A DNA stretch of 64,000 bases from an uncultured bacterium. Lineage in GTDB: Bacteria > Fidelibacterota > UBA2242. Shown one piece after another: positions 23,039-43,051 of this stretch. The notes below the pieces were generated by a model that was not told where the DNA came from, searched no databases, and saw only the letters and a list, made by a program, of their open reading frames with translations. Location of the stretch: NCBI GenBank assembly GCA_964441235.1, contig CAYTUQ010000002.1:1705-65704 (forward strand). The letters run 5' to 3'. Within the stretch, counting starts at the first letter, position 1. Each line of letters starts with the position of its first letter. Both the position numbers and the translations under genes were made by a program.

Positions 23039-25195
23039 TTGTTTAAAAAATTATTAAAATCTTCACACTACTACTTTTTCAAATCCACTCTTAAATTTTT
23101 CATAGGCAACTACTGCATTCATCATATTGAATATCCCTTGAGGAATACCTTAATTTTAGCATTAGTCGTATATCCCCTGCTTACACTTAATGCTGGAAAC
23201 CAGTGGAAAGGTATGGTTGTCGATTCTTGCAACAATTCCGTTTCCTATGTTTTTATTAATAATTCAACAAAAAATTTATGGACAATTACCGACGAAAACG
23301 GTGAATTCACACTTCCATTTTCCTTTGAAGAAAACGATTCAGTAAGATTTTCCCGCATTGGTTTCAAAACAAAAACAATCAGATTATCAGAAAAGAATAA
23401 CTTACTTTACATAATACTTACAACAAATCCAGTTTTGCTAAAAGAGATAAAAGTATCTGCTAAAAAAGACCAAATAGACATCAGGAACCACAAAATGGCT
23501 GAGATATTCAAATCACCTGAATTAGGAGATATTGAGCACCGACAATTACTTGCTGTCATTCCCGGACTTTCAATCCGATCCTACGGAGGACCAGCTGGAA
23601 TTACTACATTAAGTCTTGATGGAGGACCTTCTTCACAAACCAAAGTTATGGTTTCTGGATTTGATCTGACCAATGCCCAAAATGGTGAAATGGACCTGTC
23701 CCAACTTCCCGGTCCTTTTGTGGAGAACGTAAGTTATATACCCCAGGATGAAAATTTTTACGGCTCGGGTAGCAATGAAAGTACTATACATCTAAACCCC
23801 TGGTCTGGGAAAACCGGATTGTCACTAAGCACTGGAAGTTATGAACATAGTTCTATCCATGGCACTTTAAACCTCAACAAAAACCAGTGGTTTGGAAACT
23901 TTTTGATAGGGAAACGACATGATGATGGCAATTATCCTTTCAAATGGAGAAATGAAAGTTTCAAGCGTGAGAACAACTACTTTGACCAAAAATTCATATC
24001 AGCCCGGTTTAACACAGTTATTCAGAAACGCGCATTTCTTCGTTTTCTCTACTTATTGTCTAATCAGAACAGAGGTATAGCCGGACAGTCGTGGAATCCG
24101 AGCAAAAATGCTAGTAGAGATGATAAACTACAAATAATTGGTGTAAAATTCGGATGGACTAACAAAAAGGGACATGGTTATATCCAAACTATGTATAGAT
24201 ATTCATATGAGCAATACAAAAATCCAATGATTGCAGTAAATAGTTTTCATAGGCTAAGCACATGGCAGGTAATACTGAATCAAGAGAAAAAAATTAACGA
24301 AAAAATTGGGGTAAATTTGCTTTTTGAAACTAAAAAAGATGGGCTTAAAAGCAAAGATACACATAATCATTCTAGAATTAGTTATAGCACTGCAATTACA
24401 ATTCCTTATCATATTTCAAAAACGTTTAAATTTCAACCTGCTTACTGTTACGACATTTCGCCGAATCTATATCATGAAAGCACTTATGAACTGAAATTGC
24501 TGACGTCATTCAATTTTCTTTTTATCAAATCATTAACTATTCATCAAGGCAGATATTTTCGCTATCCTACCTTTAATGATCTCTATTGGATTCCTGGTGG
24601 GAACCCGAATTTGAAGCCGGAACATACCGACAATATAAGTCTTGATATCAAATGTCATTTAATCCAGGATTCCGATCTTGAAATTTTATTATTTTATAAA
24701 TCCAGTGATGATTTAATTCAATGGACACCAATTAGTTCTTATTGGCAGCCTAAAAATATTCAGCATGCAGTCAGGAATGGATATAAAATAATTTATCGCT
24801 GGAATAGTCCAAATTTACCATTAAAAGCTTTTGCTCATTATAGCAGCAATAGAACCAAAGACTTATCTCCAGGTGATTGCTATGGAAAACCGCTTCGATA
24901 TGCACCGGAACAAACCGCTGCAGTAGGTATAAACTGTGAGCCCGAACCGCTATCCTTTCATCTTCAAATACATCATACAAGCGAAAGAATATCTATGTAT
25001 TCCTGGCCAGAAGATGTGATATTATCGGAAGTAGTACTCATATTTACCAGCTGTGCATATACATGGAAAAGACCTTCTGGAGATATAATTATTGTTTTTG
25101 CCATGGATAACCTGGCAAATAAAAGATATGAAACAATCAAGGGTTATCCAGAACCAGGTAGAACATTTAGAATGACAATAAGCTATCAACATTAA
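23039..25195 (+). CDS. TonB-dependent receptor (BtuB-like, riboswitch-controlled) with N-terminal carboxypeptidase-regulatory-like domain
   Basis: 718 aa, TTG start. GMVVDSCNNSV...TDENGEFTL...RFSRIGFKT (CarbopepD_reg-like domain), plug region (IPGLSIRSYGGPAGITTLSLDGG), C-terminal barrel ending NLANKRYETIKGYPEPGRTFRMTISYQH. Confidence 0.8.
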   Translation: MFKKLLKSSHYYFFKSTLKFFIGNYCIHHIEYPLRNTLILALVVYPLLTLNAGNQWKGMVVDSCNNSVSYVFINNSTKNLWTITDENGEFTLPFSFEENDSVRFSRIGFKTKTIRLSEKNNLLYIILTTNPVLLKEIKVSAKKDQIDIRNHKMAEIFKSPELGDIEHRQLLAVIPGLSIRSYGGPAGITTLSLDGGPSSQTKVMVSGFDLTNAQNGEMDLSQLPGPFVENVSYIPQDENFYGSGSNESTIHLNPWSGKTGLSLSTGSYEHSSIHGTLNLNKNQWFGNFLIGKRHDDGNYPFKWRNESFKRENNYFDQKFISARFNTVIQKRAFLRFLYLLSNQNRGIAGQSWNPSKNASRDDKLQIIGVKFGWTNKKGHGYIQTMYRYSYEQYKNPMIAVNSFHRLSTWQVILNQEKKINEKIGVNLLFETKKDGLKSKDTHNHSRISYSTAITIPYHISKTFKFQPAYCYDISPNLYHESTYELKLLTSFNFLFIKSLTIHQGRYFRYPTFNDLYWIPGGNPNLKPEHTDNISLDIKCHLIQDSDLEILLFYKSSDDLIQWTPISSYWQPKNIQHAVRNGYKIIYRWNSPNLPLKAFAHYSSNRTKDLSPGDCYGKPLRYAPEQTAAVGINCEPEPLSFHLQIHHTSERISMYSWPEDVILSEVVLIFTSCAYTWKRPSGDIIIVFAMDNLANKRYETIKGYPEPGRTFRMTISYQH

Positions 25196-25210
25196 AAAGA
25201 GGAGAGAAAA

Positions 25211-26530
25211 ATGAACAAACTATTACTTGTGATTTTGCTAATCCCTGTAACCATTCTTGCACAAACCAATGTATTTATTCTGTGTGAGGGAAACATGACT
25301 CAATTAAATTCTTCACTATGGATTTTAAATGAAGACTTAAATCAAATTACAGGTCCTATTCATTGGGATTCCATTGCAAATCCTCTCGGAGACGTTGGCC
25401 AATCAATGACTATTTACAACAATAAGCTTTATATCATTATGAATAACTCACATACAATAGAAGTTGTGGATTTATCAGATAGCATTCATTATGAAATGAC
25501 TATCTCTGTTCTGGGAGCAAGTCCACGTGAAATGGAAGTTGTTGAAGGAATTGGATACTTAACATGCTGGAATTTACATGGTATTTTAGTTATAGATCTT
25601 GATAGTGGTACTTTACTAGATACTCTTGTTTTATCCGATGTTGGGCAACCAGAGGATATAGTATTCAGTGACGGCAAATTATATACCTCAATTAAACAGA
25701 ACTCAGACTGGTCGGCAGGTCATCAAATTTTTGAAATTTCTATAAATACTGAACCTACTATTACGGACACATTTGAGGTTATTGACGGTCCAGGTCAAAT
25801 GTTAATTCATGACGGATTTCTGTATGTTGTAAGTACTTACTTTGATGCTTCATATAATTCATATATTGGCATGTCAAGGATAGACCTTTTAACAGGTGAA
25901 GTAACCAAGAAAGATTACGGACAGACGTATATCTATGATTCTGACATAACTTTCTATAATGATAAAATATATTTTACTTATTCTACCGGTATTGTGCCAT
26001 TGTCCGATTCCCTGACGATTGAAGAATCAGGGCTAATTGGTAATCTCAGTGGCATTTATTCAATGGCATCTTACAATGGTTATATTTATTTCGGCTTAAG
26101 TGATTATATTGCACCTGATGATATTATAGTGTTAGACTCTTTGGGTAACCAAATAGGAAGTTTTACAGTTGGGGCATGTCCGGGTTCCTTTGCATTTTAT
26201 TCCTCCCAACAAAATTCAATAAAAGATAACTCAAGTAATATACAAACTGCATCTTTATACTCACTACATCAAAATTTTCCCAATCCGTTTAATTCTTATA
26301 CAACAATTCCATATTACATTGGGGGAAAAAGCCATATTACGATTTCAATCTATGATCTTTTAGGACATCACATCGTTGATCTTGTTAATACGAACCAGAA
26401 TAAGGGTAACAAATCAATATCGTGGAATGGTAAAGATAAATTTGGCAAAACAGTCCCGGGGGGAATCTATATCTACGAGTTAAAAACAGGGGGAGTCTTC
26501 TTAGCGAAAAAATTGGTTTATATCAAATAA
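25211..26530 (+). CDS. Secreted YncE-like/DUF5074-like beta-propeller protein with T9SS C-terminal sorting domain
   Basis: Signal peptide MNKLLLVILLIPVTILAQT. NVFILCEGNMTQLNSSLWILNED...LGDVGQSMTIYNNKLYIIMNNSHTIEVVD resembles YncE/DUF5074-type propellers. The last ~85 aa (FPNPFNSYTTIPYYI...ISIYDLLGHHIV...GIYIYELKTG...KKLVYIK) form a typical T9SS CTD. Confidence 0.75.
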   Translation: MNKLLLVILLIPVTILAQTNVFILCEGNMTQLNSSLWILNEDLNQITGPIHWDSIANPLGDVGQSMTIYNNKLYIIMNNSHTIEVVDLSDSIHYEMTISVLGASPREMEVVEGIGYLTCWNLHGILVIDLDSGTLLDTLVLSDVGQPEDIVFSDGKLYTSIKQNSDWSAGHQIFEISINTEPTITDTFEVIDGPGQMLIHDGFLYVVSTYFDASYNSYIGMSRIDLLTGEVTKKDYGQTYIYDSDITFYNDKIYFTYSTGIVPLSDSLTIEESGLIGNLSGIYSMASYNGYIYFGLSDYIAPDDIIVLDSLGNQIGSFTVGACPGSFAFYSSQQNSIKDNSSNIQTASLYSLHQNFPNPFNSYTTIPYYIGGKSHITISIYDLLGHHIVDLVNTNQNKGNKSISWNGKDKFGKTVPGGIYIYELKTGGVFLAKKLVYIK

Positions 26531-32020: not shown

Positions 32021-32602
32021 ATGAAAAATATAAAGGCTATAGAAATCTTACAAAATTCAGGGAAGAAGATTTTCACCCTTTCTGAAATAAAGAATATTTT
32101 AGGCATTGAGAAAGATAATACAATCTACAAAAAAGTAGAATCTTTGATAAAAGATCGGATATTAAAAAGGGCAATTAAAGGAATCTATTATTTTACTTAT
32201 AATTCACCGTCAGATTTTGAATTAGCTAATCATCTTTATCAACCGTCTTATGTCTCTCTTACTTCGGCGTTAAATTTCCATGGAATTTTAGTCCAGGTGC
32301 CATATAAAATAACTTCTGTTACTCCTAAATTAACACGGGAAATTTATATTAACGAAAAGACCTTTAAATATTCTCATATCTCAAAAGATTATTTTTGGGG
32401 ATATCAAAAAGTAGAAGGATTTCTAATTGCAGAACCAGAAAAAGCATTTTTGGATGTTCTGTTCTTTATGAGCTTGGGGAGGATTATTATAAGTTACGAT
32501 GAACTTTTGTTAGATAGGATTGATTATGAAAAATTTTCAGAAATGACCAAAAAAATTAAAAACCCTAACTTTCACAGATTTTTAAAAAAATTAAAATTAT
32601 GA
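32021..32602 (+). CDS. AbiEi-family type IV TA antitoxin / transcriptional regulator
   Basis: 193 aa with an N-terminal wHTH-like region. Its stop overlaps the start of the AbiEii gene (ATGA). Size and position are typical of AbiEi. Confidence 0.65.
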   Translation: MKNIKAIEILQNSGKKIFTLSEIKNILGIEKDNTIYKKVESLIKDRILKRAIKGIYYFTYNSPSDFELANHLYQPSYVSLTSALNFHGILVQVPYKITSVTPKLTREIYINEKTFKYSHISKDYFWGYQKVEGFLIAEPEKAFLDVLFFMSLGRIIISYDELLLDRIDYEKFSEMTKKIKNPNFHRFLKKLKL

Positions 32603-33399
32603 TTACACCTGAACAGATTCAAGATTTATCAAAAAAAAAGAGGATAAATCAAGATACTATACTGCGAGAATATCTTCAACTTTTATTTTTGCAGAATCTT
32701 TATAGCGAAAAGTTGTCACAGAAAATTTATTTTAGAGGCGGAACAGCAATTCATTTGCTTTTAGGTTCTTCACGATTTTCAATGGATTTGGATTTTACTT
32801 CAGAAATTTCTACAACTTGTCTGGAAAAATTAATAAAAAAGATTGTTGATAGAATGAATTTGGAAATTCCAGATATCAGATTAAAATCATCAAGAAAAAG
32901 AATCAATCACTCATTTTCTAAGATTCTATCCTATTATCCAAAAGAGAAGAAATACCCTGTTAATATTGCAATTGATTTCTCTTTAAGAGAAAAACCTGTG
33001 AAAAAAACTCAAATAACAGTATTGAAAACTGATTTTCCAATAAGTGGTTTACCTGTAATTTCACATCTACATTGGCAGGAAATCTTAGCAGAAAAAATCA
33101 GGGCAATCTTGATTCGTGGAAAAGGAAGAGATTTATATGATATTTATTATTTGGTTATGAAAAATATCCGCCAGCTGGCAGATTGGGATGTGGTGAAAGA
33201 AAAAATGAAGATATATCCAGAAGTTGATATTGATACAAATATGAATACTCTTATTAGTAGAATTGAAAAATTGGGAAACAAAGAGCTTAAAAATGATTTA
33301 GCCCAGTTTTTACCTGATTCTGAAAGAAATTCTCTTTTGCCAATATTGAAAGACGAGTTAATTAAAGAACTTGAAAAATATAAACAAACACGAGGATGA
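32599..33399 (+). CDS. AbiEii/AbiGii-family nucleotidyltransferase toxin
   Basis: FRGGTAIHLLLGSSRFSMDLDF (GGTAL...R.S.DLDF signature) and GKGRDLYDIYYL are both typical of AbiEii. Confidence 0.8.
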   Translation: MITPEQIQDLSKKKRINQDTILREYLQLLFLQNLYSEKLSQKIYFRGGTAIHLLLGSSRFSMDLDFTSEISTTCLEKLIKKIVDRMNLEIPDIRLKSSRKRINHSFSKILSYYPKEKKYPVNIAIDFSLREKPVKKTQITVLKTDFPISGLPVISHLHWQEILAEKIRAILIRGKGRDLYDIYYLVMKNIRQLADWDVVKEKMKIYPEVDIDTNMNTLISRIEKLGNKELKNDLAQFLPDSERNSLLPILKDELIKELEKYKQTRG

Positions 33400-33490: not shown

Positions 33491-34216
33491 ATGGATGAAA
33501 AGAGTTGGATAAAAAATAGACCGGAGTATGAAAGACCTCGTGAAAAACTTTTGAAGTTTGGTTCTAAGAATCTTTCTAATTCGGAATTACTTGCTATCTT
33601 TCTTAGAATAGGTGTTAAAGACAAAAGTGCAATTCAACTTGCAGCAGAAATATTAGAAAAATTTGGTGGGATTAGAGGAATTTGTACTGCCAAAATAGAA
33701 GATTTACTTACAATAAAAGGATTGGGTATAGCAAAGATTGCTCAATTAAAAGCAACTTTAGAACTCGCTGAAAGGTATCTTAAAGAAGATGTTAAGCAAA
33801 AATCAATTGTAGAAAGCTCAAAGGAAGTTTTAAATTATCTTCATCATTCAATGCAAGATTTAGATCATGAATTAATGAAAGTAATCCTTTTGAATGGTCA
33901 AAATCAAATAATAAATATTGTAGATTTATTTAGAGGCTCTATAAGTTCATCAAGTGTTTATCCAAGGGAGATAATCAAATTGGCTCTTAAATATTCAGCT
34001 TTAGCAATTGTTATTGTTCATAATCATCCTTCTGGAATTTCAAAACCAAGCGAAGGTGATAAAAAACTTACAAAAGAAATTATTTTTGCATGTATTTCTA
34101 CAGGTATTAAAGTTCACGACCATATAATAATTGGCAATAAAAAGCATTATAGTTTTGCTGATGAGGGAATTATTGAAGTTTACGAAAAAGAATATGAAAA
34201 GAGGATGAAACTATGA
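33491..34216 (+). CDS. radC: RadC-family JAB-domain protein
   Basis: N-terminal PEYERPREKLLKFGSKNLSNSELLAIFLRIG, HhH region (IKGLGIAKIAQLKATLEL) and JAMM motif VHNHPSG...PSEGD. Confidence 0.9.
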   Translation: MDEKSWIKNRPEYERPREKLLKFGSKNLSNSELLAIFLRIGVKDKSAIQLAAEILEKFGGIRGICTAKIEDLLTIKGLGIAKIAQLKATLELAERYLKEDVKQKSIVESSKEVLNYLHHSMQDLDHELMKVILLNGQNQIINIVDLFRGSISSSSVYPREIIKLALKYSALAIVIVHNHPSGISKPSEGDKKLTKEIIFACISTGIKVHDHIIIGNKKHYSFADEGIIEVYEKEYEKRMKL

Positions 34217-36096
34217 GTCCAGTAAAATATCAAAGAGTGGATGAAATAGAAAAAAGGGGATATTTAAGAGATTATGCAACGGGAAAATGGGTTAGGTCAA
34301 GGCCCGAAGAAGGACCAAGACAAATATTTGAAAAAAGGTTAGTTGGAGAATATGGCTACGACAAAGGTCAAATTGAAATTGAGTTCTTAATACAAAAAGG
34401 AGCTAGAAAAATCGGTCCTGCTGATATAGTTGTTTTTCACGATTCAAAAAGAAAAACATTTGATAACATAAAAATAGTGGTTGAAACAAAGAGAAAAGAA
34501 AAAAATGATGGAAAAGATCAATTAAGATCTTATTCAATATCACCATCCCAAGAATTTGCAGTTTGGTTTAACGGAAAAGACATTCTATTTCTACAGGTTC
34601 TGAAAAAAGCACCATGGTTTAGAGAAATCCCAGATATTCCTAAAAAAGGTGAGACATTAGAAGATGTAGGGCTTTATTATAAGAAGGATTTAAAACCTGC
34701 AACAGAACTGAAAACTGTTTTTGAGATTTGTCACAATTATATTTATGCAAATGAGGGACTCTTGAAAGAGAAGGTATTTAATGAGGTGCTAAAACTAATT
34801 TTTATCAAAATGGCTGATGAAAAGAAATCAAATCCCAAATGTGAGTTTAGAATTACTGACAAAGAATTAAAAGAATTAGAAGAGGGCAAAGAAAATGCAT
34901 TTGTGAATAGGATTTTGAATCTTTTTAGTGAAGTAAAAACAAGATATAGTGATGTTTTTGAGAAAAATGAAAGAATATATCTAAGACCTTTAACAATTGC
35001 CTTTATTGTCAGTCAATTCCAAAAATATAGTTTGATTAACACTAAAGCAGATGTTAAAGGAACAGCATTTCAAACATTTGTTTATGCTCATCAAAGAGGA
35101 GAGAGAGGGGAGTTCTTTACACCACATCCAATTGTTGAATTAGCAGTAAATATGCTAAATCCAAAAGACAATGAAAGATTTATTGACCCTGCTTGTGGTT
35201 CTGGCGGTTTCCTTGTTAAAGGAATGAATTATATTAAAGAAAAATTTATTAAAGATAATCCTCATAGGATAACTGAAGCAGATAAATTTATAGGTGAATA
35301 TGCACATTCTTATGTTTCTGGAATTGATATTAATCCTGATTTGGCAAAAGTTGCAAAGATGCACATGATTTTGTATGATGATGGACACACGGGAATTTTT
35401 TCAGCGAATACTTTAGAGAGTTTTGATAATTTGGTAAAAACTGCACAAGAAATGGGAGTTCCAAGAGCAATACAACCAAGACCAAATACTTTTCAAGTTT
35501 TGATGACCAATCCACCTTTTGGGACAAAGGGAAAAGTAACGAATAAAAGAATCTTGGAAAACTTTGAACTTGGCCATAAATGGAAAAACGATAAAGAAAT
35601 AGGAGGATGGATAAAAACAAATAAAATCTTGGATGGGCAAGTTCCAGATATTTTATTCATTGAGAGATGTTTGCGGTTATTGGACAATCATGGTAGAATG
35701 GCAATTGTTTTGCCTGACGGTGATTTAACAAATCAAAATACAGAGCATATAAGAGAATTTATTAAACAAAAAGCAAGATTACTGGCAGTAGTTTCTATGC
35801 CTATTGGAACATTTATGCATGCTGGAGTTAATCCAAAAGCAAGTGTATTGTTTTTACAAAAATTGGATGAAGAAAAATTAGAAGAGTTGAATAGAAAAGA
35901 TTATCCCATCTTCATGGCCATTGCTGAGAGGATAGGCTATGATTTAACAAGTAAAACACCTAAAATACTTTACAAAAGAGATGAGAAGGGAGAGATAATT
36001 AAATATAAAGAAGGAAAACCAATTATTGAATCTGATATTCCAGAAATAATAGAAGCGTTTAACGGATTCAAAAGGAAATATAACTTGAGGTTTTAA
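34213..36096 (+). CDS. hsdM: Type I-like N6-adenine DNA methyltransferase (HsdM-like) with N-terminal PD-(D/E)xK-like (HsdR_N-type) domain
   Basis: Motif I IDPACGSGGFLV, motif IV LMTNPPFGTKG. The N-terminal ~130 aa carries GPADIVVF...IKIVVETKRK (D...E-x-K arrangement). Start overlaps the radC stop (ATGA). Confidence 0.85.
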   Translation: MSPVKYQRVDEIEKRGYLRDYATGKWVRSRPEEGPRQIFEKRLVGEYGYDKGQIEIEFLIQKGARKIGPADIVVFHDSKRKTFDNIKIVVETKRKEKNDGKDQLRSYSISPSQEFAVWFNGKDILFLQVLKKAPWFREIPDIPKKGETLEDVGLYYKKDLKPATELKTVFEICHNYIYANEGLLKEKVFNEVLKLIFIKMADEKKSNPKCEFRITDKELKELEEGKENAFVNRILNLFSEVKTRYSDVFEKNERIYLRPLTIAFIVSQFQKYSLINTKADVKGTAFQTFVYAHQRGERGEFFTPHPIVELAVNMLNPKDNERFIDPACGSGGFLVKGMNYIKEKFIKDNPHRITEADKFIGEYAHSYVSGIDINPDLAKVAKMHMILYDDGHTGIFSANTLESFDNLVKTAQEMGVPRAIQPRPNTFQVLMTNPPFGTKGKVTNKRILENFELGHKWKNDKEIGGWIKTNKILDGQVPDILFIERCLRLLDNHGRMAIVLPDGDLTNQNTEHIREFIKQKARLLAVVSMPIGTFMHAGVNPKASVLFLQKLDEEKLEELNRKDYPIFMAIAERIGYDLTSKTPKILYKRDEKGEIIKYKEGKPIIESDIPEIIEAFNGFKRKYNLRF

Positions 36097-37034
36097 TGAT
36101 GGAAAAAGAAAAAATGACTTTTGAGGATTTTTGGAATCATGAAACAGAATATTTTAAAGAAACGGCAAAAGAAAGTTTTAAAAAAAATAAACAGGGAGTT
36201 GAATATTTTATAGAATATCTCGATAATTATATAGATCTATTTGGCATAAACAAGTATTACCAAAAAGATGAAATAACAAATTCTATTTCTGCTATGTTTC
36301 TCTTTTACTCCTTTAAACAATTGCGATGGGTTAATCATGAGATTCTATCAGGTGCTTATTTTGAGGCAATCAGAGATTTAAGATTTGCATTTGAAACTAT
36401 TGTTTGGGCACATTTTTTAGATGAGTGGATTAACGAAAAAACAAAAGAATACCTAAAAGTAAGTATAGGAGCAGGAATATCTTTAAAATATGAGATTTTA
36501 AAGTTAAGAGATGAGATATATGATGTCAAAGGTTATAGAAAAAAGAAAAATGAAAGAGAGAAAATAGTTAAGGAAAATGTTGGCAAATTCATAAAAAAGC
36601 ATGCCCAAGATTTTACAAACGAAGAAACGTGGAAATATAAAGAACTTTATTTTGAAATCTTGAAGAACTTGGGAGTTGGATTTACTGGAAAAAATGGATT
36701 AATTGCTAAACTTCCCTTAGAAGAGGAAGATGAAAAGAAGTTGGACAAACTTTATTCAGAATTATCAAAATATATCCATCCATCAAACAGAATAATAAAA
36801 CCGTTTTATGAAGACGATATTGGTTTAATCTTTAATTTTTGCTATAATAAAATATTATTTAATAGCTGTATGAGGTTTCTTGTAGATGTTATGGACTTAT
36901 TTTATGCCATTCTTTACGTCCATTTTGAGAAACTTAGAGAAGTGATTAAAGAAAAAATTGTAGATTTTTGTAAGGTTAATTTTAATATGGAATTTCCGAT
37001 AACTGAAAAATTAATACGGGATGACCTAGTATGA
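36096..37034 (+). CDS. Hypothetical all-alpha protein inserted between hsdM and hsdS
   Basis: 312 aa. Start overlaps the hsdM stop (TAATG) and the stop overlaps the hsdS start (ATGA). No catalytic motif recognised. RDLRFAFETIVWAHFL and LSKYIHPSN faintly recall HEPN/AbiV-like helical proteins. Confidence 0.6.
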   Translation: MMEKEKMTFEDFWNHETEYFKETAKESFKKNKQGVEYFIEYLDNYIDLFGINKYYQKDEITNSISAMFLFYSFKQLRWVNHEILSGAYFEAIRDLRFAFETIVWAHFLDEWINEKTKEYLKVSIGAGISLKYEILKLRDEIYDVKGYRKKKNEREKIVKENVGKFIKKHAQDFTNEETWKYKELYFEILKNLGVGFTGKNGLIAKLPLEEEDEKKLDKLYSELSKYIHPSNRIIKPFYEDDIGLIFNFCYNKILFNSCMRFLVDVMDLFYAILYVHFEKLREVIKEKIVDFCKVNFNMEFPITEKLIRDDLV

Positions 37035-39439
37035 TAATTTCAGAAGCAAAATTTTCAGAAGCTTATACCAAACTAAGATTTGATGCTGAATATTTTAAAA
37101 CAGAATTCATTGAAACACGATATAGATTAGAAAAAATTAATGCATCCAAACTTACTTCTATTGCTGAAATATCAAAATTAAGGAGGGATCCTACAAAAGA
37201 ATCGGATAAAGAATTTATATACATTGATATAAGCAATATTGATACATCTGTTGCTGATGTCAGTACACAGAAAATAATAGGTTATAAAGCACCAACAAGA
37301 GCGAGAAAATTAGTTCAAACAGGAGATGTTATAGTATCTACTGTACGACCGAATAGAAATGCCGTCGCAATTATACCAAAAGAATTAGATAATAGCGTTT
37401 GTTCTACAGGCTTTTGTGTTTTAAAACCGACGGAAGTAAATTTGCATTATTTGTTTGTTTTCTTAAAAACAAAATATGCAATAAATCAACTAGTAAGAGA
37501 AACTATGGCTTCTATGTATCCCGCAGTTAGTGAAGATCAAATTAAAAAGATATTGGTGTTTTTACCATCTTTTGAATTCCAGTTTCACGTAGAAAAACTC
37601 GTCAAAGAAGCATTTTCAAAACGAAAACTTGCTGATGAAAAATACAAACAAGCAAAACAACTTTTAGAAAAAGAATTAGGACTTGATAAATTAAAATTAA
37701 AAGAAGAAAAAACATTTGAAGCAAAATCATCAGAACTATTTGGAAGTAGAAGATTTGATTCTGAGTACTACAAGCCGAAGTGCAAACAAATCATAAGGTT
37801 TCTTAAAAATTCTGGGTTTGAAGTAAAGAAATTAAAAGAGATTGTAAAAATTTCAAATAAGAAAATTGACCCAACAAAGGAGCCAACCAAAAGGTTTAGA
37901 TATGTTCCAATAGCAAAGATAAATTCAAATGGAGAAATTGATGAGTGGGATGAATTTAATGGTTGGCAGGCACCAAGCAGGGCAAGAATGCTTATTAAAA
38001 AAGGGGATGTTTTAGTCTCATCATTAGGTGGTTCGCTTAACAAAATAGCATTAGTTCCTGAAGAATTAAATAATTCAATTGCTACAACAGGAACCTTTGT
38101 CATCAATTCTGAAAACTTTTATAGTGAATTCTTATTTTTATTATTCAGAACAGAACTAATCAAATTGCAGTTGGAGCGGAAAACAGCAGGTGCAATAATG
38201 ACTGCTGTTCCTAAAACAACTTTTGGAAATTTACTAATTCCAATTATTCCAAAACAAAAGCAAGAAAATATTGCAAAATTAATAAACCAATCTTTTACTT
38301 TGAGAAAAGAAGCAAAACAACTTTTAGAAGAGGCAAAAGAAAAGGTGGAAAGTATGATAGAAAATCCTTTAGAAATCTCTGAAACCCAACCCGTTCTCCG
38401 TAGTCCTGATAAAATTGGGACGAAGGGTGAACCTGAGATTATTATCCCTTTTCCTATTCCTTCAAAATTAATAAGCCTTAAACCGCCTGTCAAAGTAAAA
38501 TATAAAGATTACCAAATGCTTGATGGTTCAATAAAGAAATTGGTTCAACAAATAGGAGATGGTTCAATCATTAAAAGATTTGAAAAAACACCAATACCTA
38601 AAAGTAAAATAGATGTAGTTTGTCCTCATTTTCTTGAATTAAAATGGGCAACAGGATGTCCTTATGATTGTTCCTGGTGCTATCTGAAAGGAACTTTTAG
38701 ATTCTTGCCGTATAAAGCGAAACCACATATTAAGGATTTTGATAAGATAGAAAAACATACAAAGACATTTTTGGAATATGTTCAAACTCCTGAAGTATTA
38801 AATACAGGTGAGCTGGCAGACTCACTAATGCTTGAAGTAAAGAATAAATCATTTGTTAAGTTTATTGTTCCACTTTTTGAAAACCAAAATAAGCATAAGA
38901 TTCTCTTTTTGAGTAAATCAAACAAAATAGAAAATCTTTTATTACTTAATACACATCGTCAGGTTATAGTAAGTTTTAGTCTTAATGCTATTCCTGTGGC
39001 ACAAAGATGGGAAAAGAAAGCACCTTCAGTTGAAGACCGCATAAAAGCAGCAGGGATTCTATACAAACAACGATTTGAAGTAAGGATAAGGATAGACCCA
39101 ATGATCCCTGTGGAAAACTGGGAGCAACTTTATACTGATTTAATAGACCGCATATTTAATTCGTTTATACCTGAAAGAATTACTTTAGGTTCTCTTAGAG
39201 GATTACAGAGTACTATCAATGGAACATCAGATAAGTCCTGGGTAAAATATCTATCTGAACGCTCAAACTGGGGAAGAAAAATAGATATTAATTTAAGGCT
39301 TGCTATGTACAAAACAATTATCTCTTATTTAAATGAAAAGTATAAATATAATAAGGTCGCTCTTTGCAAAGAAACTTTGGCAATTTGGGATATACTAAAT
39401 ACGAATTATAAAAATATAAAATGTAATTGTGTGTGGTAG
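37031..39439 (+). CDS. hsdS: Type I restriction-modification specificity subunit (two TRDs) fused to a C-terminal radical-SAM-type (CX3CX2C) domain
   Basis: - aa 1-~440: two TRDs (RFDAEYF...STGFCVLKP...; RFDSEYY...TTGTFVINS...) separated and followed by the conserved S-subunit coiled-coil spacers (EKYKQAKQLLEKEL; EAKQLLEEAKEKVESMIEN).
- aa ~440-500: Pro-rich linker.
- aa ~500-802: VVCPHFLELKWATGCPYDCSWCYLKG (CX3CX2C), then an alternating beta/alpha pattern (ILFLSKSN, VIVSFSLN, RIRIDPMIP) reminiscent of SPL/COG1533-type radical SAM enzymes. Confidence 0.75.
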   Translation: MIISEAKFSEAYTKLRFDAEYFKTEFIETRYRLEKINASKLTSIAEISKLRRDPTKESDKEFIYIDISNIDTSVADVSTQKIIGYKAPTRARKLVQTGDVIVSTVRPNRNAVAIIPKELDNSVCSTGFCVLKPTEVNLHYLFVFLKTKYAINQLVRETMASMYPAVSEDQIKKILVFLPSFEFQFHVEKLVKEAFSKRKLADEKYKQAKQLLEKELGLDKLKLKEEKTFEAKSSELFGSRRFDSEYYKPKCKQIIRFLKNSGFEVKKLKEIVKISNKKIDPTKEPTKRFRYVPIAKINSNGEIDEWDEFNGWQAPSRARMLIKKGDVLVSSLGGSLNKIALVPEELNNSIATTGTFVINSENFYSEFLFLLFRTELIKLQLERKTAGAIMTAVPKTTFGNLLIPIIPKQKQENIAKLINQSFTLRKEAKQLLEEAKEKVESMIENPLEISETQPVLRSPDKIGTKGEPEIIIPFPIPSKLISLKPPVKVKYKDYQMLDGSIKKLVQQIGDGSIIKRFEKTPIPKSKIDVVCPHFLELKWATGCPYDCSWCYLKGTFRFLPYKAKPHIKDFDKIEKHTKTFLEYVQTPEVLNTGELADSLMLEVKNKSFVKFIVPLFENQNKHKILFLSKSNKIENLLLLNTHRQVIVSFSLNAIPVAQRWEKKAPSVEDRIKAAGILYKQRFEVRIRIDPMIPVENWEQLYTDLIDRIFNSFIPERITLGSLRGLQSTINGTSDKSWVKYLSERSNWGRKIDINLRLAMYKTIISYLNEKYKYNKVALCKETLAIWDILNTNYKNIKCNCVW

Positions 39440-39451
39440 AAAGGAAAGATT

Positions 39452-40549
39452 ATGTCTATTAAAGAAACAATATGGAAGATTGAACTGCACACACAGGCAA
39501 AGCATGAAATACTAAAGCGGTATCTTCAAGCGTGGCTTCCAATAATGAGTACTGTTAGTGGGCGTATTTTGTATATTGATGGCTTTGCAGGTCCAGGAAA
39601 GTATTTAGACGAAAATAATCAGCCAACTATTGATGGCTCTCCACTTGTGGCTATGAATGCAGCAATAAAGCACAAGTTACCGCTAAAGGCGGAGATAGTA
39701 TTTCTTTTAATTGAAGCAGACCCTAAAAGATTTGACTATCTTAAAAATTTGCTTTCAGAAATAACTTTTGCAGATAGTATGAAATATAAAGTAGTATGTA
39801 GTAAATTTGATGAAACTCTTACATCTATTCTAAACGACTTTGATGAGCAGAAGAAACAATTAGCTCCAACTTTTGCATTCATTGACCCATTTGGATATTC
39901 CGATACACCTCTTGCAGTTGTTAAACGAATAATGGAGAGCCCAAAGTGTGAGGTCCTTATTACATTTATGTATAGTTTTATAAAAAGAGCTATTGTCAAA
40001 CTCGACCAAGAAGATCATCTAGACATTCTTTTTGGTACCCAAGAATGGAGAAAAATTCGAGATATTGGTTATCCTTCAAAGAAACGAGAATTTGCCCAGC
40101 AACTTTATAAAAAACAATTGGAAAAGGAAGCCAATATAAAATATGTGCGTTTTTTTGAGATGATTAATAAGTTCAATCAAACTGAATATTTTTTATTTTT
40201 CGGAACTAATAGTCTTGAAGGACTTAGATATATGAATTCGTCAATGTGGAAAGTTGATCCGAGTGGAACATTTCAATTTTCTGATAGAACAAATCCTAAT
40301 CAAACAGTGCTCTTTACTCTAGAGCCTAACTATAACTTACTTAAAAGATTAATTGTCAGAGAATATAAAGGTAAAACGGTCTCAGTTGAAGAAGTTGATG
40401 AATTTGTATTAGTGGCTGGTTTCACTCATTTCAAAAAGAATATTTTGGAACCTATGGAAAGAGCAAAACCTGCTCAGATAGAAGTGATTAAGAGTAATAG
40501 GAAGAGAAGATATACTTATCCACCAAGAACTATAATTAAATTTTTGTAA
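39452..40549 (+). CDS. TcmP-like (three-Cys-motif partner protein family) protein, possible RlmJ-like methyltransferase fold
   Basis: 365 aa, 12 nt after the fusion gene and preceded by AAAGGAAAG. HTQAKHEILKRYLQAWLPIM, RILYIDGFAGPGKY, DGSPLVAMNA and FAFIDPFGYSD match my recollection of TcmP (TIGR04474) N-terminal halves. The same motif order occurs in RlmJ-type methyltransferases. Confidence 0.5.
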   Translation: MSIKETIWKIELHTQAKHEILKRYLQAWLPIMSTVSGRILYIDGFAGPGKYLDENNQPTIDGSPLVAMNAAIKHKLPLKAEIVFLLIEADPKRFDYLKNLLSEITFADSMKYKVVCSKFDETLTSILNDFDEQKKQLAPTFAFIDPFGYSDTPLAVVKRIMESPKCEVLITFMYSFIKRAIVKLDQEDHLDILFGTQEWRKIRDIGYPSKKREFAQQLYKKQLEKEANIKYVRFFEMINKFNQTEYFLFFGTNSLEGLRYMNSSMWKVDPSGTFQFSDRTNPNQTVLFTLEPNYNLLKRLIVREYKGKTVSVEEVDEFVLVAGFTHFKKNILEPMERAKPAQIEVIKSNRKRRYTYPPRTIIKFL

Positions 40550-40643
40550 AAGAATTTAAAACATATTTTGATACAAAAATTAAATTTAATATCAGGTCAG
40601 TTTTAAAGTGAAATGCTAAATAAAAATTAAGGTGAGGAATAGG

Positions 40644-40922
40644 ATGAAGAAAAATCAGAAAACTGGCTACCAATATGAAAAATCTCAAGCAAAAAAACAC
40701 CGAGGTAAACATCTTGGTGGCCCAGGAAAACCGGATTATCAAAGAGGTAAAATTAAGGGTGAAGTAAAAGACTGGAAACATCCCGTACATAGCGGAGTAA
40801 TTAAAAAAGCCATAAAAAATGGTGTAAAAGAAGTTGTAAGTAAAAGTGGTTTCACAAAACCAGCTATACAATTGGCTAAAAAGAAAAATATAAAATTTAT
40901 AAGACGAGGAAAAAAAGTTTAG
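40644..40922 (+). CDS. Mini restriction-endonuclease-like (Mrr_cat / PD-(D/E)xK) protein
   Basis: ATG at 40644 follows AAGGTGAGG. 92 aa. GYQYEKSQAKKHRGKHLGGPGKPDYQRGKIKGEVKDWKHPVHSGVIKK...VVSKSGFTKPAIQLAKKKNIKFI follows the Mrr-catalytic-domain order (G..yE...D...E-x-K...sGFT..A...A). Confidence 0.5.
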   Translation: MKKNQKTGYQYEKSQAKKHRGKHLGGPGKPDYQRGKIKGEVKDWKHPVHSGVIKKAIKNGVKEVVSKSGFTKPAIQLAKKKNIKFIRRGKKV

Positions 40923-41087: not shown

Positions 41088-41168
41088 AAAAGAAAAGCAA
41101 AATAGCTTTTTGAAGAAGCAAAAAGAAAAATTGAGAAGATGATTTTAAGATCATCTACAAGAAAATGA
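41088..41168 (+). pseudogene. Remnant of an hsdS 3' end (conserved C-terminal coiled-coil), copy 1
   Basis: ...KRKAK*LFEEAKRKIEKMILRSSTRK* aligns at nucleotide level with the intact RKEAKQLLEEAKEKVESMIEN region (38304-38366). The CAA codon is replaced by TAG. Confidence 0.65.
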
Positions 41169-41524
41169 CTTTATTTATAGAGAACAAAATGAATAGAGAT
41201 AAAAATATCAGAAAAATAATTTCAAGAATGGTAGAGAAAATCAAAACTGAATATCAACCAGAAAGGATAGTTCTCTTTGGTTCTTATTCTTGGGGAAAGC
41301 CAACAAGGGATAGTGATGTAGATTTACTTATTATTAAAAAGACAAATGAAAGACATTTAGAGAGAGCAATTAGGGTTAGAGAAATTGTTGATAAAGAAAA
41401 CCGAATGGTTCCACTAGATATTGTGGTATATACTCCACAAGAGCTCAAACAGAGATTGAAAGCAAGAGATTGTTTTATAAAAACAATATTAACAAAAGGA
41501 GATGTAGTTTATGAACAAGAATGA
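41165..41524 (+). CDS. MNT-type nucleotidyltransferase (type VII TA antitoxin-like)
   Basis: RIVLFGSYSWGKPTRDSDVDLLI is the minimal nucleotidyltransferase GS...D.D motif. Overlaps the downstream HEPN gene by 14 nt. An alternative ATG lies at 41189. Confidence 0.85.
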   Translation: MTLFIENKMNRDKNIRKIISRMVEKIKTEYQPERIVLFGSYSWGKPTRDSDVDLLIIKKTNERHLERAIRVREIVDKENRMVPLDIVVYTPQELKQRLKARDCFIKTILTKGDVVYEQE

Positions 41525-41894
41525 AGCATTTAGATGGTTCAAACGAGCTCAAAAAGATATTGAAGATGCAGAATTCCTCTTGAAAGAAAGCCGAACTTTA
41601 GAAAATGTAGCACTCCTTATTCAACAAGCAATTGAAAAATATCTCAAAGGATTCATAATATATCATGATTGGGAATTGGAGAAAATCCATGATTTGATAA
41701 CGCTTATTAACTATGCGAGTAAAATTGACAAATCCTTTGAGAAGTTTGTTCCTTCTCTCAGAATTATCACTAATTTCTATTTTGAAAGCCGCTATCCTAT
41801 TACCTATGAACCAGATTATACAAAAGAAGAAATAAGAGAATCTCTTAAAGAAGCAAAGAAACTTATTGCTCTAATTAAAGAAAAAGTAAAATAA
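41511..41894 (+). CDS. HEPN-domain protein (type VII TA toxin-like)
   Basis: 127 aa, all-alpha. A..D...A..L...........QQAIEKYLKGF...H.L and a FESRYP motif typical of HEPN partners of MNT. Confidence 0.8.
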   Translation: MNKNEAFRWFKRAQKDIEDAEFLLKESRTLENVALLIQQAIEKYLKGFIIYHDWELEKIHDLITLINYASKIDKSFEKFVPSLRIITNFYFESRYPITYEPDYTKEEIRESLKEAKKLIALIKEKVK

Positions 41895-42013: not shown

Positions 42014-43051
42014 ATGTTTAAACCCAAATTTACATACACAAATAAAATTGTAAGGTTGCTTACCAGAATATCTGCAGCGAGAGAGATAATTCTTAATTCG
42101 CCTTTGATCCCGGGGTGGAATGTTACATTAAGGCAGGAAGCAATAATCCACAGTGCTCATTCGTCCACGCGTATTGAGGGAAATAGATTATCATTGGAAC
42201 AAGTAAGCGAATTATCTCTTGGAAGAGAAGTAATGGCGACTCGAAGAGATAAACAGGAAGTTTTGAACTATCTGAATGTGCTAAAAAATATTGATAAGCT
42301 GATAAAAGGAAATTCTATAAGTGAGAAAGATATCTTAAATATTCACCGTATGGTAACAGAAGACACATTAGACAATTCTAATGATTGTGGGGTTTATCGT
42401 AACCGTTATGTTGTGGTTGGAAATAGATTTACAGGGGAGATTTTCTTTAAGCCACCGCAAAATGAGGATGTTCCCGGGTTAATAGAAGATTTGATTGAAT
42501 GGATAAACTCTGAGGAATCAAAATCACTCGAGCCTGTTATTGAAGCGGGTATTGAGCATTATGAATTTGTCAGAATTCATCCTTTTGTTGATGGTAATGG
42601 GAGAACTGCAAGAGTTCTGGCAACTTTGATTCTCTACATGCGAGATTTCGACACAAAACAATTTTTTTGCCTTGATGATTATTACGATTCTGATAGACAA
42701 GCATACTATTTAGCATTACAAAGTGTTAAACAAGACACATTAGACCTGACAAACTGGTTGGAATATTTTGTCGAGGGAGTAAGTGTAAGCACTGAGGCTG
42801 TCAAAGAAAGAGTGATAAGGTTAAGTAGTGAGAGACTGAGAAGATCAAAAGGCGGGCAAATAGCTTTAACCGAAAGACAGATAAGAATTGTGGAATTTAT
42901 TAATAAAAATGGTAAAATAACTAATAGAGATGTACGGGGAATGTTTAAACTTTCGGATGAAGGTGCATTGAGAGAGATTAAAAAACTAATGGTGTTGAAA
43001 GTTATTCAAAGCCAGGGTAAAGGGAGAGGGTTGCATTATGTCCTTAAATAA
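42014..43051 (+). CDS. Fic-family protein (AMPylase-type) with C-terminal wHTH
   Basis: HPFVDGNGRTARVLATL is the Fic motif HxFx(D/E)GNGRxxR. Fic_N-like N-terminus (STRIEGN). C-terminal LTERQIRIVEFINKNGKITNRDV is a wHTH. Confidence 0.9.
   Translation: MFKPKFTYTNKIVRLLTRISAAREIILNSPLIPGWNVTLRQEAIIHSAHSSTRIEGNRLSLEQVSELSLGREVMATRRDKQEVLNYLNVLKNIDKLIKGNSISEKDILNIHRMVTEDTLDNSNDCGVYRNRYVVVGNRFTGEIFFKPPQNEDVPGLIEDLIEWINSEESKSLEPVIEAGIEHYEFVRIHPFVDGNGRTARVLATLILYMRDFDTKQFFCLDDYYDSDRQAYYLALQSVKQDTLDLTNWLEYFVEGVSVSTEAVKERVIRLSSERLRRSKGGQIALTERQIRIVEFINKNGKITNRDVRGMFKLSDEGALREIKKLMVLKVIQSQGKGRGLHYVLK

Follow-up and report, generated by a model that had tools for sequence, protein, structure and literature searches.

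Distant kinship between a three-Cys-motif partner protein and the rRNA methyltransferase RlmJ, in an operon with a fused specificity and radical-SAM subunit

INTRODUCTION

What kind of protein is TcmP (three-Cys-motif partner protein), and why does one stand beside a radical-SAM domain fused to a type I specificity subunit? The family is represented by 4,352 clusters at 50% identity. In the literature that we searched, TcmP occurs only as an annotation label; we found no functional statement on the family, no link between TcmP and RlmJ, and no mechanism for the pairing of TcmP with a radical-SAM enzyme.

The TcmP studied here is encoded in a window of 64,000 nucleotides (the whole stretch of DNA analyzed). 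The original prediction, made from the order of motifs in this protein and in RlmJ, was that TcmP proteins may be RlmJ-fold enzymes in which the catalytic tetrapeptide DPPY has become DPFG, and hence either divergent adenine-directed transferases or non-catalytic base-flipping or adaptor partners of the three-Cys protein. RlmJ is the 23S rRNA m6A2030 methyltransferase (Pfam PF04378), with structures in the PDB 6qe5/4blu series and, for the Legionella protein LPL1258, in 2oo3.

RESULTS

Domain layout of the TcmP gene product

The TcmP gene (39452–40549, forward strand) starts with ATG and encodes 365 amino acids in an uninterrupted frame; stop codons abound on the opposite strand. Its product matches TIGR04474 (NCBIfam, three-Cys-motif partner protein) with 218.9 bits versus a cut-off of 53, over model positions 2–262 of 263. 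All six peptides quoted in the original prediction are present in the translation: HTQAKHEILKRYL (residues 13–25), RILYIDGFAGPGKY (38–51), DGSPLVAMNA (61–70), LLIEADPKRFDYL (85–97), TFAFIDPFGYSD (140–151) and VLITFMYS (168–175).

The N-terminal ~270 residues are a class I SAM-dependent methyltransferase domain, with an alternating β/α fold in which motif I is rich in glycines, strand 2 ends on an acidic residue, and motif IV comes after strand 4. This domain spans residues ~10–270 (39479–40261) and is covered by no Pfam model. The remainder, residues ~276–365 (40277–40546), is a winged helix-turn-helix, as judged from a match to PF22560 (GMT-wHTH) and from the helix/strand pattern of the predicted model. 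That match is the sole Pfam hit on the protein and is weak (E = 0.0013); 88 of 120 family members match the same model, the best with E = 7.7e-13. The winged helix is presumed to bind nucleic acid. We traced the GMT of its Pfam name through the Gamma-Mobile-Trio literature, where no clear link was found.

TcmP is a distant homologue of RlmJ

For comparison with RlmJ we used the actual E. coli sequence (NC_000913, b3499). BLASTP of TcmP against it yields only short motif matches (E = 0.039 and 0.43). Searches of the PDB sequences by phmmer and hmmsearch, with TcmP or its profiles as query, return no methyltransferase, RlmJ included. PF04378 does not match the window TcmP at E ≤ 0.1, and it is absent from the 25 families that 120 TcmP members hit most frequently (E ≤ 10). 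BLASTP, HMM-versus-sequence searches and Pfam all miss the relation; the homology between the two families is remote.

Profile–profile alignment does recover it. The TcmP profile comprised 141 sequences, collected in a search of 50%-identity representatives. A homologue search for RlmJ gave only sequences >83% identical, so diversity was drawn instead from genome contigs, and the resulting RlmJ profile holds 81 sequences reaching down to 50% identity. Alignment of the two with hhalign gave a P value of 5.4e-7 and a probability of 92% over 132 columns, pairing TcmP residues 17–182 with RlmJ residues 18–189. Controls run with the same TcmP profile were far weaker: P = 0.13 for reversed RlmJ, 0.48 for E. 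coli RsmJ, and 0.15 for the HsdM-like protein of the window. Profile depth mattered, in that a shallow TcmP profile of 46 sequences gave no significant result (probability 34% over 21 columns in one alignment, P = 0.0055 in another), and the global mode of hhalign failed for this pair. In a comparison of folds, the RlmJ-type fold is the closest structural neighbor of TcmP. Foldseek against the PDB returned generic methyltransferases, with RlmJ not within the best 50; against viral structures it was uninformative for TcmP.

The two families agree in detail as well. Counting the aligned positions conserved at ≥80% in both, TcmP and RlmJ have the same residue at 16 of 23. In the region of motifs X and I these pairs are K17=K18, H18=H19, D43=D40, G47=G44, G49=G46 and Y51=Y48 (TcmP residue first); around the GSP tripeptide they are G62-S63-P64=G99-S100-P101 and A67=A104; and in motifs II and IV they are E88=E118, L97=L127 and D145-P146=D164-P165. 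These data show that the co-linear motif match exceeds chance and that the methyltransferase domain of TcmP is distantly homologous to the RlmJ lineage, in support of the original prediction.

Roles have been assigned to many of these residues in RlmJ by structures and mutagenesis (PMC3814359). K18 and D164 form the catalytic pair, and alanine at either position abolishes activity; H19, S100 and D164 keep the methionine moiety of SAM in place, S100 through a hydrogen bond to the amino-acid part of SAM, and E118 does so for the ribose (PMC3814359). In TcmP, the catalytic pair corresponds to K17 and D145, and the SAM ligands H19, S100 and E118 correspond to H18, S63 and E88, all of them conserved in 89–100% of the family.

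The motifs can be placed on the gene accordingly. Motif X, Lys17-His18 (39500–39505, forward strand), aligns with the catalytic K18 and the SAM-binding H19 of RlmJ; K17 is invariant and H18 is ≥90% conserved. Motif I, the glycine-rich SAM loop RILYIDGFAGPGKY (39563–39604, forward strand), is the counterpart of RlmJ LYLDTHAGAGRY; here D43 and Y51 are invariant, and G44, F45, G47, P48 and G49 are ≥90% conserved. Gly62-Ser63-Pro64 (39635–39643, forward strand) answers to G99-S100-P101. Motif II, LLIEAD (39704–39721, forward strand), presents Glu88 at the place of the ribose ligand E118; the glutamate is found in 89% of TcmP and 100% of RlmJ sequences. Motif IV, FIDPFG (39878–39895, forward strand), aligns Asp145-Pro146 with D164-P165; D145 is invariant, and P146, F147 and G148 are ≥90% conserved. 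Across 139 diverse TcmP sequences, 32–73% identical to that of the window, just five residues never vary, namely K17, D43, Y51, G62 and D145; H18, S63, E88 and the glycines of motif I are conserved at ~90% or more.

The RlmJ motifs given in the original prediction are exact (LYLDTHAGAGRY, GSPLIA, ELHPSDYPLL, LILIDPPYE and ALWYP), apart from a spacing after KH that was slightly off. The pairings drawn from them were reproduced by hhalign, with one exception: VLITFMYS was not aligned with ALWYP. That pairing would suit the order of secondary structure (strand 5) and would set F172 opposite the base-stacking W195 of RlmJ, and it stays at the level of inference because hhalign did not recover it.

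TcmP departs from both RlmJ and Trm1

RlmJ has an inserted helical subdomain of ~40 residues ahead of GSP, which appears as a gap in the hhalign alignment. Motif I and GSP are thus separated by ~50 residues in RlmJ versus ~10 in TcmP, whose model shows no helices there. The N-terminal tail of RlmJ carries Y4 and H6, which are essential for activity and lie outside the aligned region. They have no evident counterparts in TcmP: the TcmP tail has H13 and T14 conserved at ≥90%, and W8 in closer homologues, with no Tyr/His at the RlmJ spacing. In motif IV, the second proline and the tyrosine of DPPY are gone. The adenine-binding D143 of RlmJ aligns with a position that is not conserved in TcmP. TcmP, unlike RlmJ, adds a helical/β extension and the C-terminal winged helix. 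Given the missing PF04378 match, the lack of the helical subdomain and of evident Y4/H6 counterparts, the DPFG motif, and the added extension and winged helix, TcmP is a distant, divergent relative of RlmJ that falls outside the RlmJ family proper. The two also differ in setting, RlmJ being a housekeeping rRNA enzyme whereas TcmP genes are mobile and come with a radical-SAM partner.

The DPFG sequence itself is shared with Trm1, the tRNA m2,2G26 dimethyltransferase and an active guanine-N2 methyltransferase (PDB 2dul, 3axs/3axt). We verified motif IV of Trm1 as IDLDPFGSP or VDLDPFGTP; its DPFG is identical to that in FIDPFG of TcmP. Beyond this motif, Trm1 (Pfam TRM) shows no sequence-level family match to TcmP, does not have the closest fold, differs in the N-terminal region and the C-terminal domain, and works alone on tRNA. 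We rejected DPFG as the mark of an inactive enzyme, since it is the motif IV of an active one. By analogy with Trm1, DPFG need not mean a loss of catalysis in TcmP.

The operon fuses a specificity subunit to a radical-SAM domain

A tight cluster of genes, all on one strand (34213–40549), ends with TcmP. The first gene (34213–36096, forward strand) encodes an HsdM/MAD2-like N6-adenine DNA methyltransferase (N6_Mtase, E = 1.3e-34) with an HSDR_N_2 domain at its N-terminus (E = 1.8e-16). An ORF of 312 amino acids follows (36096–37034, forward strand), its ends overlapping both neighbors; it matches nothing in Pfam, NCBIfam or PADLOC, and it is conserved in an independent metagenome contig (L198). 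The third gene (37031–39439, forward strand) encodes the partner protein, an 802-residue fusion of a two-TRD HsdS with a radical-SAM domain of the spore photoproduct lyase (SPL) clade, as seen from matches to Methylase_S (in two stretches), SPL and Radical_SAM, and from MAD5-like and TIGR04070-like matches in NCBIfam. Its radical-SAM cluster motif, the 'three-Cys motif' CxxxCxxC, reads CPYDCSWC (38657–38680, forward strand). This gene ends 12 bp upstream of TcmP.

The fusion is unusual. We considered an assembly artefact as its source and rejected this, as contig L198 has the same 802-residue gene in the same operon, with a TcmP 97% identical to that of the window. Over its C-terminal 332 residues, the fusion shares 73% identity with an SPL-like protein that stands alone in another genome (L082), where it adjoins a TcmP that is also 73% identical to the one in the window.

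As in type I restriction-modification systems, one operon encodes both an N6-adenine methylase, here HsdM-like, and an HsdS with two TRDs, and PADLOC reports MTase_I and Specificity_I for the two genes. Type I systems have HsdR, whereas here the specificity subunit carries a radical-SAM domain and TcmP follows it. No ORF for HsdR (SF2 translocase plus nuclease) was found between positions ~22 and ~46 kb in the window or in contig L198; the only HsdR-related piece in the region is the HSDR_N_2 domain of the HsdM-like protein. We therefore rejected membership among canonical type I systems, HsdR being missing. MADS was rejected on scores: MAD2 and MAD5 are the best NCBIfam matches of the methylase and specificity proteins, but the scores fall far below the cut-offs (476 versus 720 bits for the former, model NF047738, and 134 versus 400 for the latter), and PADLOC gives no matches to other mad genes.

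The radical-SAM domain has CxxxCxxC in common with SPL itself (PF20903, TIGR04070) and matches the SPL families with E values of 1.5e-15 and 5.9e-20, yet at 71.5 it scores far below the equivalog cut-off of 400. Unlike SPL, it is fused to HsdS, paired with TcmP, and found in no sporulation or UV-repair context. Genes for AbiEi-like/AbiEii, RadC, MNT-HEPN and Fic proteins flank the operon, which thus sits in a defence-island setting.

PADLOC further assigns the window TcmP to PDC-M30A (E = 3e-60) and PDC-M41A, components of candidate defence systems in which TcmP is joined with a DUF5131 protein; DUF5131 partners at related loci match PDC-M30B and PDC-M41B. In the window, by contrast, the partner is an SPL-like radical-SAM domain fused to HsdS, and an HsdM-like methylase is present in addition. 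PADLOC gave no match to any model for the SPL-type radical-SAM domain alone, and the literature searched yielded no characterization of PDC-M30 or PDC-M41.

TcmP is almost always adjacent to a three-Cys protein

We then surveyed 117 TcmP loci. An adjacent three-Cys protein is encoded at 103, so that TcmP almost always adjoins a three-Cys radical-SAM protein. At each of the other 14 loci, the sequence on one or both sides of the gene is <1.7 kb long, and given such short flanks a partner may have been missed. Partners fall into three types: DUF5131 proteins with a Cx6CxxC motif (57 loci), Radical_SAM proteins weakly related to DUF5131, with CxxxCxxxC or Cx6CxxxC (27 loci), and SPL-like proteins with CxxxCxxC (about 19 loci). 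SPL and DUF5131 share one radical-SAM megacluster in RadicalSAM.org (PMC9477430).

At 12 of the 117 loci, with all three partner types represented, an HsdM-like methylase lies upstream of TcmP in the same operon, often accompanied by HsdS; one example (L087) has the gene order RadC-Fic-M-S-TcmP-rSAM. Coupling of TcmP to modules for DNA methylation and specificity thus recurs, in the window by gene fusion. The gene is patchily distributed and mobile, occurring on viral and prophage contigs, beside recombinases and in defence islands. Other recurrent neighbors are a small PolX-like gene (directly downstream in seven loci), a LexA-like (LexA/S24) repressor (upstream in seven), a T5orf172-ResIII helicase, and recombinases.

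DISCUSSION

The explanation that we favor, with a probability of roughly 0.6, is that TcmP is a SAM-binding, base-flipping DNA subunit that partners a radical-SAM enzyme of the SPL clade. With the SAM ligands and the catalytic Lys/Asp pair retained, TcmP most likely binds SAM and accepts a flipped-out base, which would enter a pocket of the amino-methyltransferase type. The domain has lost the helical subdomain of RlmJ and carries a DPFG of the Trm1 type, and the protein has gained the C-terminal winged helix. TcmP would act as an obligate partner of the three-Cys enzyme, and the substrate of the pair would most likely be DNA. As the radical-SAM domain forms one protein with HsdS and shares a transcript with an HsdM-like methylase, in a defence island that lacks HsdR, the HsdS part would deliver the pair to defined DNA sequences. 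There, the pair could either modify the DNA or damage DNA that is unmodified, taking the place of a classical restriction subunit. This division of labor between TcmP and the radical-SAM enzyme is inferred. A replacement of HsdR by the pair is not forced by the data, since the methylase protein has a nuclease-like HSDR_N_2 domain of its own.

Some observations count against a base-flipping DNA subunit of this kind. Y4 and H6 of RlmJ lack evident counterparts, and the match to D143 is not conserved. Moreover, were TcmP an ordinary base methyltransferase, its radical-SAM partner and its retention beside HsdM would be left unaccounted for. PolX-like and LexA-like neighbors at some loci would fit a role in DNA repair instead.

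A more specific version is tentative, and we put it forward as a possibility well short of even odds. It holds that the pair is a two-part DNA machine of a kind without earlier description, in which TcmP would flip, and perhaps methylate, a base at the site chosen by HsdS, and the radical-SAM subunit would then act on that base or methyl group, with the fusion as the physical link that gives the complex away. What results would be a new DNA hypermodification, or else restriction by radical chemistry in the place of HsdR.

Might TcmP instead be catalytically dead, an adaptor with a methyltransferase fold whose part is only to bind or flip the substrate, or to serve the radical-SAM enzyme as a scaffold? 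This was the second option of the original prediction. The change of the canonical (D/N)PP(Y/F) to DPFG speaks for it, as do the poor conservation of the essential Y4/H6 tail, the nearly constant pairing with a three-Cys protein, and the presence at HsdM loci of a DNA methylase already. However, pseudo-enzymes normally lose their cofactor-binding and catalytic residues, whereas TcmP keeps K17 and D145 without exception, and the SAM ligands and motif I glycines nearly so, in sequences as little as 32% identical to the window protein; and DPFG works as motif IV in Trm1. This pattern of conservation makes a dead adaptor rather unlikely.

Unlikelier still is that the resemblance to RlmJ comes down to the generic class I methyltransferase fold and convergent motifs, with TcmP no nearer to RlmJ than to Trm1, CmoA or O-methyltransferases.

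Next comes a DNA-repair or lesion-reversal module, in which an SPL-like lyase would work with a lesion-flipping partner, a reading that we regard as improbable. The homology of the partner to SPL and the PolX-like and LexA/S24 genes beside TcmP would suit it, but it does not accord with the linkage to HsdM and HsdS, the location in defence islands, or the listing by PADLOC as a candidate defence system, and it leaves the fusion to a specificity subunit unexplained.

Least likely of all, although both of its closest characterized structural relatives act on RNA, is that TcmP, in the manner of RlmJ and Trm1, methylates rRNA or tRNA, with incidental DNA-related neighbors, given its patchy and mobile occurrence on viral and prophage contigs, near recombinases and in defence islands, its operons with DNA methylase and specificity subunits, and a partner that is fused to a DNA specificity subunit and belongs to a clade that includes the DNA-repair enzyme SPL.

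For TcmP, a large family known by an annotation label and possessing a catalytic-looking domain that has no Pfam model, kinship with RlmJ provides a testable hypothesis. TcmP together with DUF5131 makes up two catalogued, uncharacterized candidate phage-defence systems. Both the fusion of HsdS with a radical-SAM domain and the recurrence of M-S-TcmP-rSAM operons hint at radical-SAM chemistry directed to specific DNA sequences. They also provide a natural experimental handle, since the target site is set by the specificity subunit. If true, sequence-directed radical-SAM chemistry would amount to modification or restriction of a new kind.

A methylase and an HsdS::radical-SAM fusion in the TcmP operon

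The operon is headed by an HsdM/MAD2-like N6-adenine DNA methylase (M; window 34213-36096, +) with an N-terminal, nuclease-like HSDR_N_2 domain. Its score falls well under the equivalog cut-off for the methylation-associated defence system (MADS), and we therefore class it as a relative rather than a MADS member. Farther downstream (37031-39439, +), a two-TRD type I specificity subunit (S; HsdS/MAD5-like) is fused in frame to an SPL-clade radical-SAM domain in a single protein of 802 aa; the CPYDCSWC motif of the radical-SAM domain maps to 38657-38680 (+). The same fusion was found in L198, an independent metagenome contig, and L082 encodes a version of its radical-SAM part as a stand-alone protein.

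Two further ORFs lie in this region. The first, of 312 aa, separates M from S and overlaps each of these neighbours at its start and stop codons (36096-37034, +). It had zero matches across Pfam, NCBIfam and PADLOC, and shows no similarity to the positionally equivalent 315-aa gene of L082; L198 retains a counterpart. The second, strongly basic and 96 aa long, lies immediately 3' of TcmP (40632-40922, +) and matched only Mrr_cat and FdhD, both weakly and below threshold. At the corresponding position, L198 has a 92-aa gene call.

Genomic setting

Defence-island neighbours of the operon include an AbiEi-like/AbiEii pair (32021-33399), RadC (33491-34216), an MNT-HEPN pair (41165-41894) and Fic (42014-43051), all on the forward strand. 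RadC and Fic likewise flank the M-S-TcmP-rSAM operon (rSAM, the radical-SAM partner) of L087, an unrelated contig. Elsewhere in the window, a TonB-dependent receptor with a CarboxypepD_reg domain and a protein bearing a C-terminal T9SS sorting tail (23039-26530, +) suggest a Bacteroidota-like (FCB group) host. Among named TcmP homologues, the closest belong to Aerophobetes and further uncultured lineages.

Other modules associated with TcmP

At four surveyed loci (L154, L156, L185 and L197), the SPL-like partner of TcmP (CPAECSFC; e.g. L154:5212-6756) carries an N-terminal extension of ∼220 aa for which Pfam returned no match. By analogy with the HsdS fusion, this extension may be another targeting domain. 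In four others (L109, L111, L113 and L165), TcmP is directly preceded by an 839-aa protein combining T5orf172 (GIY-YIG-like) with a ResIII helicase (e.g. L165:1563-4082). A small PolX-like protein (∼177 aa; DNA polymerase β palm and thumb domains) is encoded ∼13 bp 3' of TcmP, on the same strand, at seven loci (L141, L147, L148, L153, L157, L163 and L182; e.g. L153:4091-4624), which hints at a link to DNA repair or gap filling.

The module 5' of the SPL-TcmP pair in L082 (L082:3206-9098) differs from that of the window, consisting of a GHKL-type HATPase_c_3 protein (525 aa), the 315-aa protein and a second radical-SAM protein (CPRHCPFC). Because of this difference, the data suggest that several kinds of systems accept the SPL-TcmP pair as a plug-in.
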